From: Candidatus Heimdallarchaeota archaeon
GTDB lineage: Archaea > Asgardarchaeota > Heimdallarchaeia > Heimdallarchaeales > Heimdallarchaeaceae
DNA: 64,000 bases
Direction of reading: 5' to 3'
Assembly (NCBI GenBank): GCA_030603365.1
Contig: JAUVXV010000001.1
Coordinates: 416,001-480,000 of the forward strand
The stretch's first letter is position 1; the number at the start of each line of letters is the position of its first letter. The notes below the pieces were generated by a model, which searched no databases, was not told the origin of the DNA, and saw only the letters and a program-made list of their open reading frames with translations. The position numbers and the translations under genes are program-made. Shown here one piece after another: positions 2,317 through 63,945 of this stretch.

Positions 2317-3999
2317 ATGAACTTAAGGAAAATCTTGATTGCAAGTGGTATAATATTATTAGTGCTTAATTTAACACCTTCTTTTTCTGAAGCGAAAGAA
2401 AGCCCTCAAACAGATTCAAGTCTAATTGTTAACCAAGAAGTGAATTTCTATTTCAATGTTACAACCATGTACACTGAAATTTCAATTCGAAGTGATGGTT
2501 CTATAGATATTTATTATTTAATTCAATTCTTTAATCATCCAAATTCCTCATATAGTGAGCCTATATGGGTTTTTGATATTGGTTTTCCAAATGTCTATTA
2601 TGATCTTGATTCTGTAAGAGCAAAAATAAATGGTACGGAAATTACAGATATTAACAAAAGTCCTTATGTTGATATAGGCGTAGAAGTGATTCTTGGTTCG
2701 TATGCCGTTCCTTTGGGATACACTGGTGTTCTAGAAGTGTGGTGTCATAATCCAATAATGGTTTATGAAGATGAAAATGAAGGCTTTGGATCTACTGTCT
2801 TTCTACAAACATGGTTTGATTTCCAATATGTTTACCATCAAACCTTTAGAACTGTTCGATTTTATTTCCCCGATGGTTTGGAAGACATAACTGTGGTGGA
2901 ACCGCGTGTTTATGATAGAGGTGATTTTACGGTATTTGAACACCCTACAGATAACGCTCTATCTTATGTTCAATTTTATTATATAGGTTATCCTGATGAT
3001 GGCTATTGGGTTGGTGTAGCTTTTCCTAAAGATTATGCAAGAATTTTCAGTTCATTCTGGCGATTGAAGGTTTTTGGAAACATTATACAGAATCCTTTTT
3101 TTACAGTCGTTATTGCTTTAATAATCCTCGGAATCATTGCTCTTAGTATCAATAAAAGAAGAAATAAGAGAAAATATCTTCCCCCATCAATCAGTTCTTT
3201 GGGCGGGGGGGTAAGAGAAGGTCTAGAGCCTTCAGAAGTAGCGATTTTACTTGAAAGACCATTAACGCAAGTAGCTTCTTTAATGTTATTTGAAATGATG
3301 GAAAAAGGGTATTTAGCTATAAAACAGACATCACCAGCTCTAAGAATGGATGTTACAATAAGTACAGAGGCTGCAAGAGAATTACCCAAATATCAAAGAA
3401 CAATAATCGGAGGGATAAAAAATAGAAATAAAGAAGATATCAAATGGGAAAAGGGTGCTTCATCTGGAGCAATTCCGCCTGAACCTGTTCATCAAGATGC
3501 AATTAAGAGTGCTTTAGTTACTCAAATTAAATCAGTTACTAAAAAGATGAAAGGATTTTCAGCTAGAAAGTCTAGAGATTATTATGAAGCAGTTATAGAT
3601 AGAGCTTGGCAGGAAATGGATAAATCCAAACCAGAATTGAAGAATGCTTTCCTATGGATAATGGTAGATGAGAAGTATGAGCAACAACTTGAGAAATCTG
3701 GTGGAAACTATTACTACCCAAGATGGTATGTGTTTAGTTACTACCTCTATGTTGGAGGACCTCGTCCAACAACTAGAGGTCATTATACAAGAATCCCCTC
3801 CCATAGAAGTATCTCACATGCAGCTCCTGTGAATACTTTTATGTCTGGATTAATTCATAAACCTCAATCTCTCCACAATTCTATAAGGAACATTACTCGA
3901 CCTCCATCAACTAGCTCAGGAAGAAGTGGTGGTGGCGGTGGCGGAGGGTGTGCATGTGCTTGTGCATGTGCTTGTGCTTGTGCAGGAGGCGGAAGATGA
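2317..3999 (+). CDS. DUF2207-like membrane protein with signal peptide, extracellular domain, TM helix and a C-terminal Gly-rich (Cys-Ala)6-GGGR tail; putative radical SAM substrate
   Basis: N-terminal signal peptide, 'ISIRSDGSIDI' DUF2207-like start, TM at ~aa 260-280, 'LEPSEVAILL', C-terminus SGGGGGGGCACACACACACAGGGR. Confidence 0.8.
   Translation: MNLRKILIASGIILLVLNLTPSFSEAKESPQTDSSLIVNQEVNFYFNVTTMYTEISIRSDGSIDIYYLIQFFNHPNSSYSEPIWVFDIGFPNVYYDLDSVRAKINGTEITDINKSPYVDIGVEVILGSYAVPLGYTGVLEVWCHNPIMVYEDENEGFGSTVFLQTWFDFQYVYHQTFRTVRFYFPDGLEDITVVEPRVYDRGDFTVFEHPTDNALSYVQFYYIGYPDDGYWVGVAFPKDYARIFSSFWRLKVFGNIIQNPFFTVVIALIILGIIALSINKRRNKRKYLPPSISSLGGGVREGLEPSEVAILLERPLTQVASLMLFEMMEKGYLAIKQTSPALRMDVTISTEAARELPKYQRTIIGGIKNRNKEDIKWEKGASSGAIPPEPVHQDAIKSALVTQIKSVTKKMKGFSARKSRDYYEAVIDRAWQEMDKSKPELKNAFLWIMVDEKYEQQLEKSGGNYYYPRWYVFSYYLYVGGPRPTTRGHYTRIPSHRSISHAAPVNTFMSGLIHKPQSLHNSIRNITRPPSTSSGRSGGGGGGGCACACACACACAGGGR
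3949..3984 (+). repeat. (TGTGCW)6 hexamer repeat encoding CACACACACACA
   Basis: TGT GCA TGT GCT TGT GCA TGT GCT TGT GCT TGT GCA; variation only at synonymous Ala positions. Confidence 0.95.
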
Positions 4000-5339
4000 T
4001 GAATTTATCAGAATTACTGAACAGATTTAGAATAACAAGAAAATCAGAGATGTTCCACCAAAGGAATCTAGATACCACTTCAAGAATGCATCTGCGGAAA
4101 GAAAGGAAAGGAAAGAGTCTTCTCTTAGTTAATGCAACCATGATTTTTCATTTAAACAAGACAGCAACAGACTTTGCTTCTCGAATCATTGATGGTAAAG
4201 ATGATGCTGAAATAATAAGAGAAATGAAAAGGAAATATCGCGTTTCAGAGGAGCAATTGAAAACAGATTTGGATGATCTAAGGAACTCCATTAACCGTCT
4301 ATTAGATGAACCTGATATTGACCCTGTTCAACACCTGTCTCAAGATGTAAGCCCTTTGCTAGAAGCATCCTTTTCGGCACCTTTGAGAATGGATCTTGCA
4401 ATTACATATAGATGTAACAACAAATGTTCAAAGTGCTATGTTGAGAATTACAGAGATGTTAGAGAATTATCAACTATTGAATGGAAAAAAGTTCTAGACA
4501 ATCTTTGGAAAATAGGCATTCCACACGTTACTTTTACTGGTGGAGAACCTACAATAAGACAAGACCTTCCAGATCTTGTTGAATATGCTGAAGATCTTGG
4601 AATAATAACTGGTTTAATTACAAATGGAAGGAAACTCAAAAATGCTAAATTAGTAAACAAACTAGTAAATGCAGGAATTGACCATTTTCAGGTAACGATT
4701 GAAAGTCATGATGCTTCAATACATGATTCAATGTGTGGTGAAAGAGGATCATGGCAAGAAACAGTTGAAGGAATAAAGAATATTGTTCCAACTCCTGTTT
4801 ATATTATGACTAACACAACCTTGACCCCTTATAATATCAAAGATATTGAAAAAACTGTCGAATTTCTTCATTCTATAGGGATTGAGAAGTTTGCAGCAAA
4901 TAGCATTATCAAATCTGGTGGAGGAAAACAAGAGGATTTAGCAATCTCTGTCGAAGAACTAGATGAAGCTCTAACGAAAATTATGAATAAAGCTTATGAA
5001 CTAGGTATGAGTTTTATTTGGTACAGTCCAACAAGATATTGCGATTTTAATCCTATAGACAAAGGATTGGGGATGAAGCAATGTTCAGCTGCTCATATAG
5101 CCATGGCTATCGAACCGGATGGGGAAGTAATACCATGTCAGAGCTATTTTGAAACTCTAGGAAACATTCTTACAACTAGATGGGGTAAAATCTGGAACCA
5201 TAAAACCTCAAGAAAATTAAGAAATATGAAATATCTTCAAGAGGAATGCTTAGATTGTCCTGAAAGAGAAGTGTGCGGTGGAGGGTGCCCATTAAATTAT
5301 GCTGCACCCATGAATATTTGTAAAACCCCATTCTCCTAA
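3996..5339 (+). CDS. PqqD/RRE-domain radical SAM protein with SPASM domain (peptide/protein maturase family)
   Basis: N-terminal RRE-like 'LNKTA...IIDGK...KY.VSEEQLKTDLDDL'; CNNKCSKC; 'FTGGEP'; SPASM 'CSAA..IEPDGEVIPCQ...CLDC...CGGGCP'; ATG 3996 overlaps the upstream TGA (ATGA). Confidence 0.93.
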   Translation: MMNLSELLNRFRITRKSEMFHQRNLDTTSRMHLRKERKGKSLLLVNATMIFHLNKTATDFASRIIDGKDDAEIIREMKRKYRVSEEQLKTDLDDLRNSINRLLDEPDIDPVQHLSQDVSPLLEASFSAPLRMDLAITYRCNNKCSKCYVENYRDVRELSTIEWKKVLDNLWKIGIPHVTFTGGEPTIRQDLPDLVEYAEDLGIITGLITNGRKLKNAKLVNKLVNAGIDHFQVTIESHDASIHDSMCGERGSWQETVEGIKNIVPTPVYIMTNTTLTPYNIKDIEKTVEFLHSIGIEKFAANSIIKSGGGKQEDLAISVEELDEALTKIMNKAYELGMSFIWYSPTRYCDFNPIDKGLGMKQCSAAHIAMAIEPDGEVIPCQSYFETLGNILTTRWGKIWNHKTSRKLRNMKYLQEECLDCPEREVCGGGCPLNYAAPMNICKTPFS

Positions 5340-5349
5340 TTTTTTTCTG

Positions 5350-6114
5350 GTGCTCGAAATGTCAAACAGAACCAAAGATGTTAACTGGGGACCAGAAATT
5401 CATGAACAATTCAAGAGACAAGCTAAATGGACTGAAGATTTTAGATCTCAAATTTATCGCCAAATAAATCTCAGGAACGCAAAGAGAGTTTTAGAAGTGG
5501 GATGTGGAACAGGCGTAATAACCAATGAACTAAAACAGAAAACTTCTGCTAAAATTACTGCAATTGATTCTGATGAAAACATGGTAGAAATAGCAGAAAA
5601 AAATGTTGTAGATGTCAAATTCTTAGCTGAAAACGTTGAAAAATTAACTATGAAAGACAATTTTTTTGATGTAATTTTGTGTCAGTATCTTTTTCTTTGG
5701 TTATCAAATCCCAAGATAGCAATAAGCGAAATGGTTAGAGTGTGTAAAAAGGGAGGACACGTTGTAGCTTTAGCAGAACCAGATTACGGAGCATGGATCG
5801 AATATCCTGAATTGAATTTAGGGGAAAAGCACATTGAATATCTCAAAAGTGAGGGCGCTGATCCATTCATGGGAAGAAAGATACTCAGTTTATTTGAAGG
5901 AGCAGGTTTACAGACTAACCTTATTACTATAGCTCAGAGCTGGAATCAAGAGAATCTTAAAAACAATATTGAAGAAGAATGGCAAAGAGTATTAGAAGCT
6001 AACTTGATTACCGAAGAAGAATATTCACGTATTATTAAAAAAGAAATGGATCTGATTAGAGAGAATCAAAGAATGATTTTTATGCCAGTTTTTTGCGCAA
6101 TTGGAAGAAAGTAG
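5350..6114 (+). CDS. Class I SAM-dependent methyltransferase (UbiE/type 11-like)
   Basis: 'VLEVGCGTG', 'AIDSD', 'FDVI', 'EMVRVCKKGG'; starts 10 nt after the rSAM stop (GTG 5350, or ATG 5359). Confidence 0.9.
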   Translation: MLEMSNRTKDVNWGPEIHEQFKRQAKWTEDFRSQIYRQINLRNAKRVLEVGCGTGVITNELKQKTSAKITAIDSDENMVEIAEKNVVDVKFLAENVEKLTMKDNFFDVILCQYLFLWLSNPKIAISEMVRVCKKGGHVVALAEPDYGAWIEYPELNLGEKHIEYLKSEGADPFMGRKILSLFEGAGLQTNLITIAQSWNQENLKNNIEEEWQRVLEANLITEEEYSRIIKKEMDLIRENQRMIFMPVFCAIGRK

Positions 6115-16242: not shown

Positions 16243-16491
16243 TCAGCTGTTTGGGTATTTCTCTTTTAAAATCTGCATTGCTTCAGAAATAGTTAAACTG
16301 GCTAATTCTTTAGCAGTTTCATAATGTTCTCCACAGAACCACTCCGCATAAGGTGGGTGCCCAACAGCTCCTTTTCTTTCCATCTCTTTAATCCATTTTT
16401 TATCGCTTTTGCGTTTCTTAAAATAGATTACACCACCTTCGTCTGAATGGGGGAACCTTTTATCACAAATTGTGCAAATAGGCGGTTTCAT
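16243..16491 (-). CDS. Small putative Zn-binding protein
   Basis: 82 aa; 'PPICTIC' ... 'GHPP..EWFCGEH' (C2-CH ligand set). Confidence 0.75.
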   Translation of the reverse strand: MKPPICTICDKRFPHSDEGGVIYFKKRKSDKKWIKEMERKGAVGHPPYAEWFCGEHYETAKELASLTISEAMQILKEKYPNS

Positions 16492-16514
16492 TGCTCTTTA
16501 CCACGCACGTTATG

Positions 16515-16876
16515 AAACTTGGTCAAACTTGCCAGAGGGCGTTTAACCGTCGTTTAAGTGGATCCCCTCACGTGCGTTGAGGGGAAGAATCATGAGGATC
16601 ATGATTGAGGGAGGAAAGAAGGGAGTGCGCATGAACTCCTACGTCATTCCACCCATTGCGCGAAGTGCTGAATGGTTCAAACATTACTAACTGAGGGACA
16701 GGTGGTCACGCACCTGCGAACCATAGAAAGGTGAGTATTCACCTAGCACTACCTATATATCCGTACTTTCACATATAAACTCGTAGAAAAATGGAGGATG
16801 GGGGAAGCACCATCTCTCTCGCTTGAGAACGCAATATACGCACACTAGAAAACTTATGGCAAGATTGAGTAAGTTC
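16515..16876 (-). ncRNA. Candidate ~360-nt structured RNA (free ncRNA or 5' leader); alternatively a MITE-like element
   Basis: GC-richer, ORF-free gap; ~20-bp end-to-end helix (16515-16534 with 16857-16876); 6 or more internal helices; TATA-like TTTATAA at 16910-16904 on the minus strand. Confidence 0.6.
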
Positions 16877-16928
16877 TTATGCTTCAGTCATCTACGGTGT
16901 TTCTTATAAAAAGATTTAGGGCATTTCA

Positions 16929-50470: not shown

Positions 50471-52735
50471 TCAAGATAGGAAGGTTAGTTGCTTTAGAAT
50501 ATTAAACAGTTCATCAACGGGTAATTTATCTATCTTCTTATTATCTCTAGTTTTTCTCTCCATTTCCTTCAATAAAAGTCCATATTCGTAAGCTGATTTA
50601 GATATTTGAGCAAAGGTAGAATCGTATTGTGCAACAGATTGGAGTTTTTCACTAGCTTTATTTGCTTCTTTTGATGCTTCAATAAAATAGGAAGCAGCCT
50701 TGTAATTGTCTTTATTAGTATCCGCTCCAATTCCAAGTATTGCTGTTTTTGTGGCATCAAGGAAATTTGTTAGTGCTTCAGATAATATTTTCTTAATCTC
50801 AATTGCTTTCCAGTTAATATTTGTATCCTTTAACTCAAACATTTTCTTGTGGTTCAGCAATTCCCCACAATCCTCACTTATTCGGATATTTATAGCATTA
50901 AATAATGTGAATTGATTGAAATTATGGTTTATTACTATTTGATAATTCTCCTTTGTTGTTTCCTTTTTTGAAACAGCTATTTTGTAACTTCTTGCAATTC
51001 TATCTATAACTGTATTAAGAAAGAGAAATTGTCGTGTTAGCTCAAAGAGACGTAATTCGATATCTTGTCCTTGAATAAATGTTTGACTATATCTATGCTC
51101 AACCCATGCTTTATCGATTTTTGATTTGTCACTTAACTGAGAAATCTCAATTGCTTTTGTTGAATAATAATGAGCTTTAGCATGATAAATTATGTCGAGA
51201 ACTTCATTTGAATCTTTATCAGCAAGACTATGTTCTAGGTATATAGAATTAGCCATGAATTCCAAACATTCTATATCTTTGATAATATACACTTTTGTTT
51301 CAGATTTGGGTAAGAAATAAGCAGAAATTTTAATATTTGAGATGTTTTCAAGCAATGATTCAATACTCTCAGGCTTGATTTTTTTTCCTTTTTTCTCTAA
51401 ATCAACCAATTGATCTGAAATATCTTTTATTGCAAATTCTAAGCTTTCAATGAACCTGATTAGATTTTGTTCTGCTTTATTAATGGCTTTATCAAAAGGT
51501 AACTTTTCAAGCGTTGCTATTTTAAGTTCTTGTACGAAATTCAAATACACATATGGCAAGCTACTTACATAATTGATATTAACTTTCAAACCTGGTTTAT
51601 TAACAATAGTCTCTACTTCTTTTATCAGTTTTTGAATTTCCTTGTTAGATCCTGTAGAAATGATAGAGTTCAATTGTGAGGTTTTTGCTGCAAGTTCTGC
51701 AATTCCGTGGAAGAAAATATGAATAGATTCATTCTTTTGAATATCTTCTTTGAGTCGTAGATTTCTTTCATCTAAATCAGTATTTGACGAAAGTACTTTG
51801 AGAGCTTCAGTTTCAAATCCCAAAACTAAATAGAGAAATTGAACACTAGCGATAAAACTGTCACTTTTAGCAGCTTCAAAACTCAATCTAAGATAATGGT
51901 CTGTTAATTCGTTATTTCTTAAAGCTAGGTTGAGAAGGAGATGGCTATTTTCTATCTGCTTTCCCTTTAACTCAGGATCTTCAGAAAGATCGCTATAATA
52001 CTCCAAGGCAGTTTCAAGGTGCGAAAGGCTTCTTTCAAATGCAAAGTGAGTTGCTATTGGGTCCTTCCACCACCAATCTTGACCCAATCTTTTTAGAAAT
52101 TGAGAAGTAAATGAAACATCAAATTCAGCAAGAACCAGTTCATATGAACCTTTTTCTTCTAATAGTCTCTCCTTATTAACTTCATTAGGCGATTCTTCAA
52201 GAAGTTGTATGATTTGATTTTTTTGATTTACCAGCAGAAAAGTAAGCATAACTTCTTCAATACTTGAAGCTCGAGGATGAGTTGAATCAAAATATGTTTG
52301 TGAAATTGAATTCAGAATCCGATATCCTTCAATATAAGATGTACAATATTCTGGAGATGGTTGAGTTCCAAAAATACCTGTGTTTACTATGTCTGCATAG
52401 ATGACCATAAGGTTAGCTAATTCCATTTGAAATTCTTGTAAATCTTCTAATTTTGTTGTAAGAATTTCTTTCCTTTCAGCATTTGAGTCTATCTGAGATC
52501 TATCTCTAGTCCATTCATCGAGATAACGTCTGTACAGAAGATGTGCTAAGGAAGATACATTGGAAAGGGTTTCAGCACAGAATTTAGAAAAGCTTAACCA
52601 AACTTGACTTAACTCATCTAAATCATCTATCTGAACAAAAGAATGATAGATTCTTTCTCTTTCCAACTCCATCAATACGAATTGTTTGAATGGAGAATCA
52701 CTTAGCAACTCTATTGTCTCTTTGGAAAATACCAT
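50471..52735 (-). CDS. Large all-alpha hypothetical protein
   Basis: 754-aa ORF with amphipathic helical composition and no recognised motif. Confidence 0.7.
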   Translation of the reverse strand: MVFSKETIELLSDSPFKQFVLMELERERIYHSFVQIDDLDELSQVWLSFSKFCAETLSNVSSLAHLLYRRYLDEWTRDRSQIDSNAERKEILTTKLEDLQEFQMELANLMVIYADIVNTGIFGTQPSPEYCTSYIEGYRILNSISQTYFDSTHPRASSIEEVMLTFLLVNQKNQIIQLLEESPNEVNKERLLEEKGSYELVLAEFDVSFTSQFLKRLGQDWWWKDPIATHFAFERSLSHLETALEYYSDLSEDPELKGKQIENSHLLLNLALRNNELTDHYLRLSFEAAKSDSFIASVQFLYLVLGFETEALKVLSSNTDLDERNLRLKEDIQKNESIHIFFHGIAELAAKTSQLNSIISTGSNKEIQKLIKEVETIVNKPGLKVNINYVSSLPYVYLNFVQELKIATLEKLPFDKAINKAEQNLIRFIESLEFAIKDISDQLVDLEKKGKKIKPESIESLLENISNIKISAYFLPKSETKVYIIKDIECLEFMANSIYLEHSLADKDSNEVLDIIYHAKAHYYSTKAIEISQLSDKSKIDKAWVEHRYSQTFIQGQDIELRLFELTRQFLFLNTVIDRIARSYKIAVSKKETTKENYQIVINHNFNQFTLFNAINIRISEDCGELLNHKKMFELKDTNINWKAIEIKKILSEALTNFLDATKTAILGIGADTNKDNYKAASYFIEASKEANKASEKLQSVAQYDSTFAQISKSAYEYGLLLKEMERKTRDNKKIDKLPVDELFNILKQLTFLS

Positions 52736-63854: not shown

Positions 63855-63945
63855 GCTCCGATAGCTCAGATGGCCTAGAGCGGTGATCTCGTAAATCGCT
63901 CGAGAAAGTCACAGAACGGGGGTTCAAATCCCCCTCGGGGCTCCA
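63855..63945 (+). tRNA. tRNA-Thr(CGT) with a 13-nt intron at 37/38 (63894-63906); CCA encoded
   Basis: GCTCCGA/TCGGGGC-T-CCA; anticodon stem GTGAT/GTCAC; BHB with central helix CTCG/CGAG and 3-nt bulges. Confidence 0.93.

Follow-up and report, generated by a model that had tools for sequence, protein, structure and literature searches.

What is the GC-rich, hairpin-dense gap at 16492-16911 of the window (the whole 64,000-nt stretch of DNA analysed here), and why does it stand directly before a start codon? The window comes from a 3.65-Mb assembly of 17 contigs, and its DNA was also found in cold-seep and sediment metagenome runs. Within the gap the G+C content rises to 0.44–0.50 against ∼0.32 in the surroundings and the genome, and no ORF of at least 60 aa is present, the longest being 30–38 aa. 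The initial annotation regarded the gap as a novel large host non-coding RNA or a riboswitch-like leader, with a MITE as the alternative. Its description of a GC-richer, ORF-free and hairpin-dense gap was accurate, and every motif and coordinate that we checked was found in the sequence, including the hairpins TCCCCTCA/TGAGGGGA (16563-16585) and AATCATGA/TCATGATT (16588-16606) and the AGTGCT/AGCACT pairing enclosing ATGGTTC/GAACCAT, CAGGTG/CACCTG and AGGTGA/TCACCT. The folding energy of 16492-16911 is modestly better than that of shuffled sequences on both strands (z = −2.7 for minus and −2.8 for plus).

The region proved to be unannotated in Rfam as well: no family reached its gathering score on 16492-16911, a search with 601 bases alone at E ≤ 10 returned only a chance 13.5-bit match to PrrB, and seven sibling copies or loci gave no match at E ≤ 5. 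The covariance models of known large RNAs (RNase P, SRP, OLE, ROOL, GOLLD, HEARO, and group I/II introns) gave no match either. A divergent RNase P RNA on the plus strand, first suspected from GAGGAAAG- and ACUAGAAAACUUA-like motifs, was ruled out, as RNase P RNA (163.5 bits) and SRP RNA (91.2 bits, below the 96.5-bit cut-off) were both located elsewhere in the genome and the stretch itself is a repeat. At the far end of the window (63855-63945), the Rfam alignment of a tRNA-Thr(CGU) shows ∼14 nt inserted after the anticodon stem, presumably an archaeal intron.

Boundaries, copies and empty sites of the repeat

The repeat copy in the window was delimited as an ORF-less, non-autonomous IS607-type element on the minus strand at 16503-16893 (391 nt, the ends being ambiguous by a shared GT). 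Its right boundary is sharp at 16503 in all copies, and its left boundary lies just after ACCGT (16898-16894). In an alignment of 19 ORF-less copies from 13 genomes, the flanks are unrelated between copies, the reading frames are not conserved, and the right boundary falls exactly after ...CAUAACGUGCGU (window 16503). Each of the 45 distinct right ends terminates in ...AACGUGCGU or in a variant of it with compensating changes, and contigs from other metagenomes diverge from the window at 16503 and 16898. On the right side, 16492-16502 is all that lies between the element and the ATG at 16491.

Twelve BLAST matches to the stretch were found in its own genome. They include ORF-less siblings at C1:52010 and C15:200737, and three further places where only the first 84–100 nt match, which represent the end of a 2.7-kb element. 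The matches further include pieces of the repeat at four contig ends of the same assembly (C6:1-177, C7:132153-132329, C2:123705-123751, and C3:143878-143924); these pieces in G000 are near-identical copies of the C15-type mini-element, and the repeat family is one cause of the fragmented assembly. Across the genus, BLAST detected the repeat in 21 of 24 genomes searched, and in other genera of the order in 0 of 16. The 5′ domain described below was found in 15 of the 24 genomes of the genus and in both genomes of the sister genus (2/2). Furthermore, five relatives (G023, G020, G010, G013, and G012) possess the orthologous locus with both flanking genes present and the element absent, leaving a gap of 25–45 nt versus ∼400 nt in the window. 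The comparison of these loci and copies establishes, at the level of sequence, that the mini-element is mobile.

The pentamer ACCGT just outside the left end (16894-16898, minus strand) is a target or TAM-like motif, and the crossover dinucleotide common to both junctions may be its GT. Short and full-length copies alike have ACCGT, or a variant differing in one base, before their left end; it is exact in 10 of 18 and degenerate in 8 of 18. We assign the motif to the target because ACCAT stands at the corresponding position of the G023 empty site. At the right end, the last bases are GCGT, a look-alike of the ACCGT outside the left end. No target-site duplication was found at the mini-element junctions, since the TTATG repeats (16510-16514 and 16877-16881) that had been offered as such lie inside the element; the MITE alternative was thus right in kind and wrong in this argument, and the dispersed copies and empty sites that it predicted were seen, with target-site duplications absent. 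The supposed terminal helix fared similarly. Its arms (16515-16534 and 16857-16876) are indeed complementary at 16 of 20 positions, but they represent inverted transposon ends rather than an RNA helix: the right arm is nearly invariant among copies, the left arm drifts, and the changes are uncompensated.

The gene next to the right end (16243-16491, minus strand) encodes an 82-aa Cys-rich protein, a small Zn-ribbon gene recognized by its ORF and its syntenic conservation in relatives, for which no Pfam family was found. Upstream of the element lies the TATA box UUUUUAUAA (16904-16912, minus strand), which is now ∼400 nt from the ATG. The initial annotation had tied the TTTATAA box at 16910-16904 to the terminal helix. 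We attribute it instead to the promoter of the host gene, because the TTATAAAAA box is invariant at the empty sites of G023, G020, G010, and G013 and is located there 25–30 nt from the ATG. Judging from these empty sites, the element landed between the TATA box of the host gene and its start codon, and its placement before the Zn-ribbon gene is an accident of insertion. The sibling at C1:52010 represents a second case of insertion right before a host gene, with only 6 nt between its end and a downstream tRNA gene (34.6 bits) of like orientation (L005:1421-1494, minus strand; G000:C1 ∼51930-52003). Among the copies within 200 nt of genes, 10 have the opposite and 4 the same orientation, and one copy interrupts an ORF in antisense. 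With no bias toward the sense orientation upstream of genes and an ORF interrupted in antisense, the copies offer support for neither a leader nor an intron-like role.

Full-length relatives and their proteins

The three 2.7-kb elements in the same genome are full-length copies with two genes each, on the minus strand relative to the window, in the order tnpA(serine) then tnpB-like. The tnpA product of 197 aa (130 aa in the third copy, L054) combines a MerR-type HTH with a resolvase domain; its match to the IS607 family transposase model NF033518 scores 167.5 bits against a cut-off of 110. The short copies share with the full-length elements ∼90 nt of the right end and ∼45 nt of the left end. 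By BLAST, the right end matches with 87–95% identity over 84–100 nt and the left end (window 16853-16902) with 74–81% identity over 32–51 nt; the left ends of full-length copies were aligned by eye. The left end common to the autonomous elements spans 16853-16893 (minus strand) and holds the inverted-repeat arm 16857-16876. At the other side, the shared 3′ module begins in the last codons of the tnpB-like gene and ends at the right boundary, with the stop codon located 51–64 nt before this boundary and a shared hairpin lying inside the last codons, so that the overlap of the scaffold with the 3′ end of the gene is limited to the last ∼90–100 nt. Between the left end and the conserved core of the short copies, a variable spacer (16792-16852, minus strand) bears a copy-specific hairpin, GATGG/CCATC in the window copy; it is unalignable between subfamilies, and the BLAST matches of most copies begin at query positions 105–112 (approximately window 16791-16798).

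Several copies depart from this plan. L034 (G023:C18) is a decayed mini-element in which 38 nt are missing, including helix H4 and the CCCUCAG loop. L031 (G020:C11) is decayed or truncated, with most of the interior gone and a compensated pseudoknot variant kept. In the sister genus, L065 (G041:C21, ∼3522-5940) presents a mini-element-type 5′ domain upstream of a tnpA 3′ remnant, the promoter block and an intact tnpB-like gene of 652 aa; it looks like a recombinant or nested element.

The second gene of the full-length copies encodes a product of 642–676 aa (family size ∼640 aa), the 642-aa copy being located at L052:265-2193 (minus strand, G000:C14). Pfam recognized only a Cas12f1-like TNB domain in the large protein (24–27 bits), which was present in 16 of 26 relatives. 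A profile built from these 26 relatives matched ISFba1 TnpB of the PDB at E = 8.9e-9, and also Cas12f and ISDra2 TnpB. The AF2 model, built with the 26-relative alignment, reached a pLDDT of 88 and a pTM of 0.77, and Foldseek matched it to Cas12f, TnpB, other Cas12 types and Fanzor2 at a probability of 1.00. According to this predicted fold, the large protein is a divergent relative of the TnpB/Cas12-fold nucleases. The family is small, comprising 159 representative clusters among 1.84 billion proteins, and relatives of the gene are located in MAGs labelled Candidatus Heimdallarchaeota, including AB_125. Some of the relatives are 1200–1780 aa long.

Residues D433 and E532 and the zinc-finger cysteines C591, C607, and C610 are invariant in the family, and the RuvC-III aspartate is replaced by an invariant His617 within the motif VNTHxNAA, giving a D-E-H RuvC site. 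Changes of the RuvC aspartate, including Asp to His, occur in several TnpB branches, some of them nearly restricted to archaea, and these proteins are thought to be still active (PMC10691335). Given the histidine at RuvC-III, we regard cleavage by this protein as a candidate activity only.

Promoter-like block, RNA structure and the 5′ domain

The conserved core of the short copies opens with a promoter-like block (16772-16791, minus strand), which is composed of a U5 run (16791-16787), CUACGAG (16786-16780), and the TATA box UUUAUAUG (16779-16772). The block, UUUUU-CUACGAG-UUUAUAUA, is nearly invariant in short copies, and each of the three full-length copies has it at the same position, between its tnpA and tnpB-like genes (best nhmmer E = 0.0027). 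In L052 and L054, which were checked, its TATA box lies 20–37 nt before the tnpB-like start codon. Such a distance is what one expects of an archaeal mRNA with a short leader. Counted from 16750, the first base of the closing helix of the multibranch domain, the TATA box of the window copy occupies −29 to −22. From this arrangement the block is predicted to work as a promoter with a transcript start at ∼16750, and the mini-element would use the promoter of the parental tnpB gene to produce a scaffold of ∼250 nt that runs across the right boundary into the flank.

Downstream of the predicted start, the 5′ multibranch domain (16662-16752, minus strand) comprises the helices H1 AGUGCU/AGCACU, H2 GGUGA/UCACC, H3 AUGGUUC/GAACCAU, and H4 CAGGUG/CACCUG and the conserved internal loop UCCCUCAGUUAGU. 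Over these 91 nt, 94.7% of cells are paired in 15 copies and five pairs are changed on both sides; 0 of 500 shuffles reached its score, and slid controls were 31–45% paired. The central region (16607-16661, minus strand), with a GGAGU/ACUCC hairpin, a purine/pyrimidine helix and a possible GCGCA/UGCGC pseudoknot, is weakly supported (79.8% paired), with one pair being UA in 6 copies and CG in 5 copies. RNAalifold paired its GCGC (∼16658) with the 3′ end, and a local GCGCA/UGCGC helix fits the same variation about equally. The hairpin AAUCAUGA-UCC-UCAUGAUU (16588-16606, minus strand; RNAalifold pairs 203–217 to 208–212) is kept in 12–14 of 15 copies, and its 3′ arm corresponds to the codons ...PHDSF... 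of the tnpB-like gene.

The 3′ module was compared in 31 distinct copies, short and full-length. It contains the hairpin UCCCCUCA-ACGCACG-UGAGGGGA (16563-16585, minus strand), whose stem is invariant in the 31 copies, and a 3′ stem-loop AAAC..GGUUAAA / UUUGACC..GUUU (16515-16555, minus strand), which contains the inverted-repeat arm of the right end. In this stem-loop, the outer helix is invariant, while the inner helix shows three pairs changed on both sides as well as UA/UG and GU/AU alternation. The loop of the former hairpin forms the 5′ strand of a pseudoknot, and CGUGCGU (16503-16509, minus strand), the final 7 nt of both scaffold and element, forms the 3′ strand. Pairing is found in 98.6% of cells for this helix (positions 16–22 with 86–92 in alignment A4), three of its seven pairs are changed on both sides, G-U intermediates occur, and the loop variants are matched at the 3′ end (ACACACG/CGUGUGU, ACGUACG/CGUACGU, and AUGCACG/CGUGCAU). 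In total, 5 + 6 pairs are changed on both sides in the 5′ domain and the 3′ module, respectively. As the copies are related by descent, the shuffle statistics overstate the significance, and what carries our argument is the set of distinct variants that are compensated.

Where only one side of a pair has changed, the result is G-U on the minus strand and would be A-C on the plus strand, so the RNA is in the sense of the tnpB-like gene. The assignment to the minus strand proposed in the initial annotation is borne out by the G-U intermediates of the covarying helices, and the covariation that it called for is seen as compensatory changes in the interior helices and the pseudoknot. Of the two pairings postulated for the loop ACGCACG (16577-16571, minus strand), the one with 16509-16503 is backed by covariation, and for the other, the partner TGTGCGT close to the 5′ end lacks conservation across the copies. 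A switch-like pairing beside the start codon cannot be maintained in this light: the pairing is a conserved pseudoknot of the element's guide-RNA scaffold and is not tied to the ATG of the Zn-ribbon gene. By analogy with TnpB systems (10.1101/2023.11.20.567912; PMC10691335), the guide would be read from the DNA next to the right end; in the window, a putative guide segment of assumed length (16483-16502, minus strand) contains the start codon of the Zn-ribbon gene.

Model R1 finds the 5′ domain in ORF-less copies only. With nhmmer, the 5′ 200 nt of the short core gave nothing significant against the last 700 nt of nine full-length elements, and a search against whole elements detected only the promoter block (E = 0.0027) and a mid-gene motif of 15–16 nt (E = 0.03–0.25). 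The conserved loop UGUCCCUCAGUUAGU recurs in the middle of the tnpB-like gene as the codons for SVPQLV, immediately after a predicted stem of 7 bp. Among 26 tnpB-like genes, the synonymous-site identity is 0.7–0.9 over codons ∼245–340 compared with ∼0.55–0.6 otherwise, and it rises again over the last 20 codons; no overlapping ORF explaining the constraint over codons ∼245–340 was found. This mid-gene island (genes L052, L053, L054, and L069–L097) consists of two predicted hairpins followed by CCCUCAGUUAGU, a motif common to the 5′ domain of the mini-element. Local alignment of a window-type copy with whole genes scored 30 against a shuffle maximum of 25–27 in two of three comparisons, through the mid-gene motif alone, whereas the third window-type comparison (27 versus 30 for the shuffle) and all comparisons with other subtypes did not exceed the shuffles. 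One copy has a further CCCTCAGT match close to its 3′ end, which was attributed to chance. A stem and then CCCUCAGUUAGU occur in the same order in both, and the 5′ multibranch domain could conceivably represent an RNA element from the middle of the tnpB-like gene that was copied and became mobile, although we consider this rather doubtful. The mini-element may have kept two nucleotide-constrained pieces of its parent, the similarity being short and borderline.

Interpretation, alternatives and known systems

In our reading, to which we give a probability of about 0.8, 16503-16893 is an IS607 derivative that is non-autonomous and brings its own promoter together with a stand-alone omega (guide) RNA, the latter being used in trans. 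The pieces kept from the autonomous element would quite probably be the left end, the promoter of the tnpB-like gene, a remodelled 5′ RNA domain, and the last ∼90 nt, which correspond to the 3′ omega RNA scaffold. The element shares its ends with the full-length copies, the partner protein has a TnpB/Cas12 fold, and the RNA structure is conserved in a strand-specific manner. In the mechanism that we propose, the serine transposase TnpA of the three full-length copies would move the element in trans through the shared ends, with a GT crossover in an ACCGT-like target. The internal promoter would then produce the ∼250-nt scaffold, whose guide would differ from insertion to insertion. This RNA would be bound by the 640-aa TnpB-like protein supplied from elsewhere, which would recognize ACCGT plus flank, i.e., the vacated site, and such recognition could favor the retention or re-copying of the element. 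We infer the transcription, the loading in trans and the cleavage. In bacteria, retention is promoted by TnpB elements (10.1101/2023.11.20.567912; PMC10055086). Several observations speak against the omega RNA reading: the 5′ ∼200 nt have no counterpart at the 3′ end of the tnpB-like gene, the partner protein has His at the RuvC-III position, and the TAM-like motif is variable, with an exact ACCGT in only part of the copies. Furthermore, RNAalifold on 31 full-length 3′ ends detected no conserved structure upstream of the shared hairpin, and the need for, or binding of, the 5′ domain by the protein is consequently put forward as a candidate feature.

An improbable competitor is that the element is an inert MITE, mobilized in trans and without a functional RNA, whose hairpins are left over from the parent or serve the transposase as signals at the DNA level. 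Both ends are common to the autonomous element, the inverted ends show no RNA-type compensation, and decayed copies such as L034 and L031 exist, all of which an inert MITE would explain. Against this reading stand the compensated interior helices and the pseudoknot joining a loop to the 3′ end, in which the G-U pairs would be A-C on the other strand, and the conserved promoter block at the right distance. IS607 serine recombinases, moreover, act on double-stranded DNA (10.1101/2023.11.20.567912), so that strand-specific pairing would have no DNA-level role.

Two further readings appear less likely still. A mobile intron-like element (an IStron or a bulge-helix-bulge intron) would remove itself from host transcripts and make insertions harmless, and we hold this to be very unlikely, although the window copy lies in sense between promoter and ATG, its sibling lies just upstream of a tRNA gene, the ends can pair at 16 of 20 positions, and IS607 IStrons exist in Clostridia (10.1101/2023.11.20.567912). 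No group I/II intron signal was found in Rfam for eight copies (E ≤ 10 or E ≤ 5), the end pairing is uncompensated, and the idea fails on the surveys of spanning ORFs and of orientation, in which sense bias was missing and one ORF was interrupted in antisense. As for a host-encoded large non-coding RNA or a riboswitch-like leader of the Zn-ribbon gene, a GC-rich structured island lying 11 nt before an ATG and matching no Rfam family would suit it well, but we attach hardly any credence to it. The same gene in relatives has a TATA-to-ATG gap of 25–45 nt without such an RNA, the stretch is a multicopy, dispersed repeat with unrelated flanks that occurs in many contexts and both orientations, with empty orthologous sites and no preference for the sense orientation upstream of genes, the pairing partner beside the ATG is the conserved end of the element itself, and the RNase P and SRP RNAs of this genome are encoded elsewhere.

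The preferred reading, a transposon derivative with a guide RNA used in trans, has precedents. Stand-alone mobilized omega RNAs of OMEGA (TnpB/IscB) systems have already been described (Altae-Tran et al., 2021, as summarized in PMC10691335). The common points in that summary are a scaffold on a copy lacking effector and transposase, effector copies in the genome, and a guide taken from the flank; the differences here are an archaeal (Heimdall-group) IS607-type parent, a highly divergent TnpB-like protein of 640 aa, a 5′ domain absent from the 3′ end of the effector gene, and what appears to be the promoter of the effector gene. PATE-like minimal IS200/IS605 elements of Geobacillus stearothermophilus also encode omega RNAs (Meers et al., PMC10055086). 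They resemble the mini-element in being protein-less, in keeping both ends and the omega RNA, and in depending on TnpA and TnpB in trans, as would be the case here. In contrast, PATEs are transposed in single-stranded form by a Y1 transposase and have subterminal hairpins and TTAC-like targets, whereas the present element derives from a parent with a serine recombinase, its ends are inverted and its target is ACCGT-like.

In IS607 of Clostridium botulinum (CboIStron), the target/TAM TGGG resembles the end of the omega RNA scaffold, TCGG, and the two junctions have a dinucleotide in common (10.1101/2023.11.20.567912). The gene order of tnpA(serine) then tnpB and an omega RNA ending at the right boundary are the same in both, with TGGG/TCGG there and ACCGT/GCGT here, and by this analogy a shared crossover dinucleotide is likely in the Heimdall-group element. 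Unlike CboIStron, the latter has no group I intron, an archaeal host, a TAM-like motif that is not G-rich, and a histidine as its RuvC-III residue. The omega RNA scaffold of ISDra2 contains a pseudoknot. The ISDra2/ISFba1 TnpB structures (PDB 8H1J, 8EXA, 8IAZ) have the fold of the partner protein, and their RNA is composed of a 5′ scaffold and a 3′ guide, as predicted for the RNA of the mini-element with its scaffold pseudoknot; by contrast, the latter RNA has no detectable sequence or Rfam similarity, and the protein is ∼240 aa longer with a large helical N-terminal part.

These results remove a false lead, since the stretch is neither a new housekeeping RNA nor a riboswitch, and provide a clean anatomy of an abundant repeat of the Heimdall-group Asgard archaea, with its boundaries, target motif, likely promoter and covariation-supported RNA structure. 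They also matter for annotation, as the element here splits a gene from its promoter and breaks the assemblies of these genomes. The RNA and its large, divergent TnpB-like partner with a D-E-H RuvC site form a candidate RNA-guided nuclease. If the 5′ domain was indeed copied from the middle of the gene, this would be an archaeal TnpB family with a bipartite or extended guide-RNA architecture, or one with an autoregulatory RNA site, and the mini-element would have captured both constrained pieces and the promoter, as a hyperparasite competing for the nuclease. If the 5′ domain is functional, stand-alone guide RNAs can evolve parts that are absent from the 3′ end of their parent.
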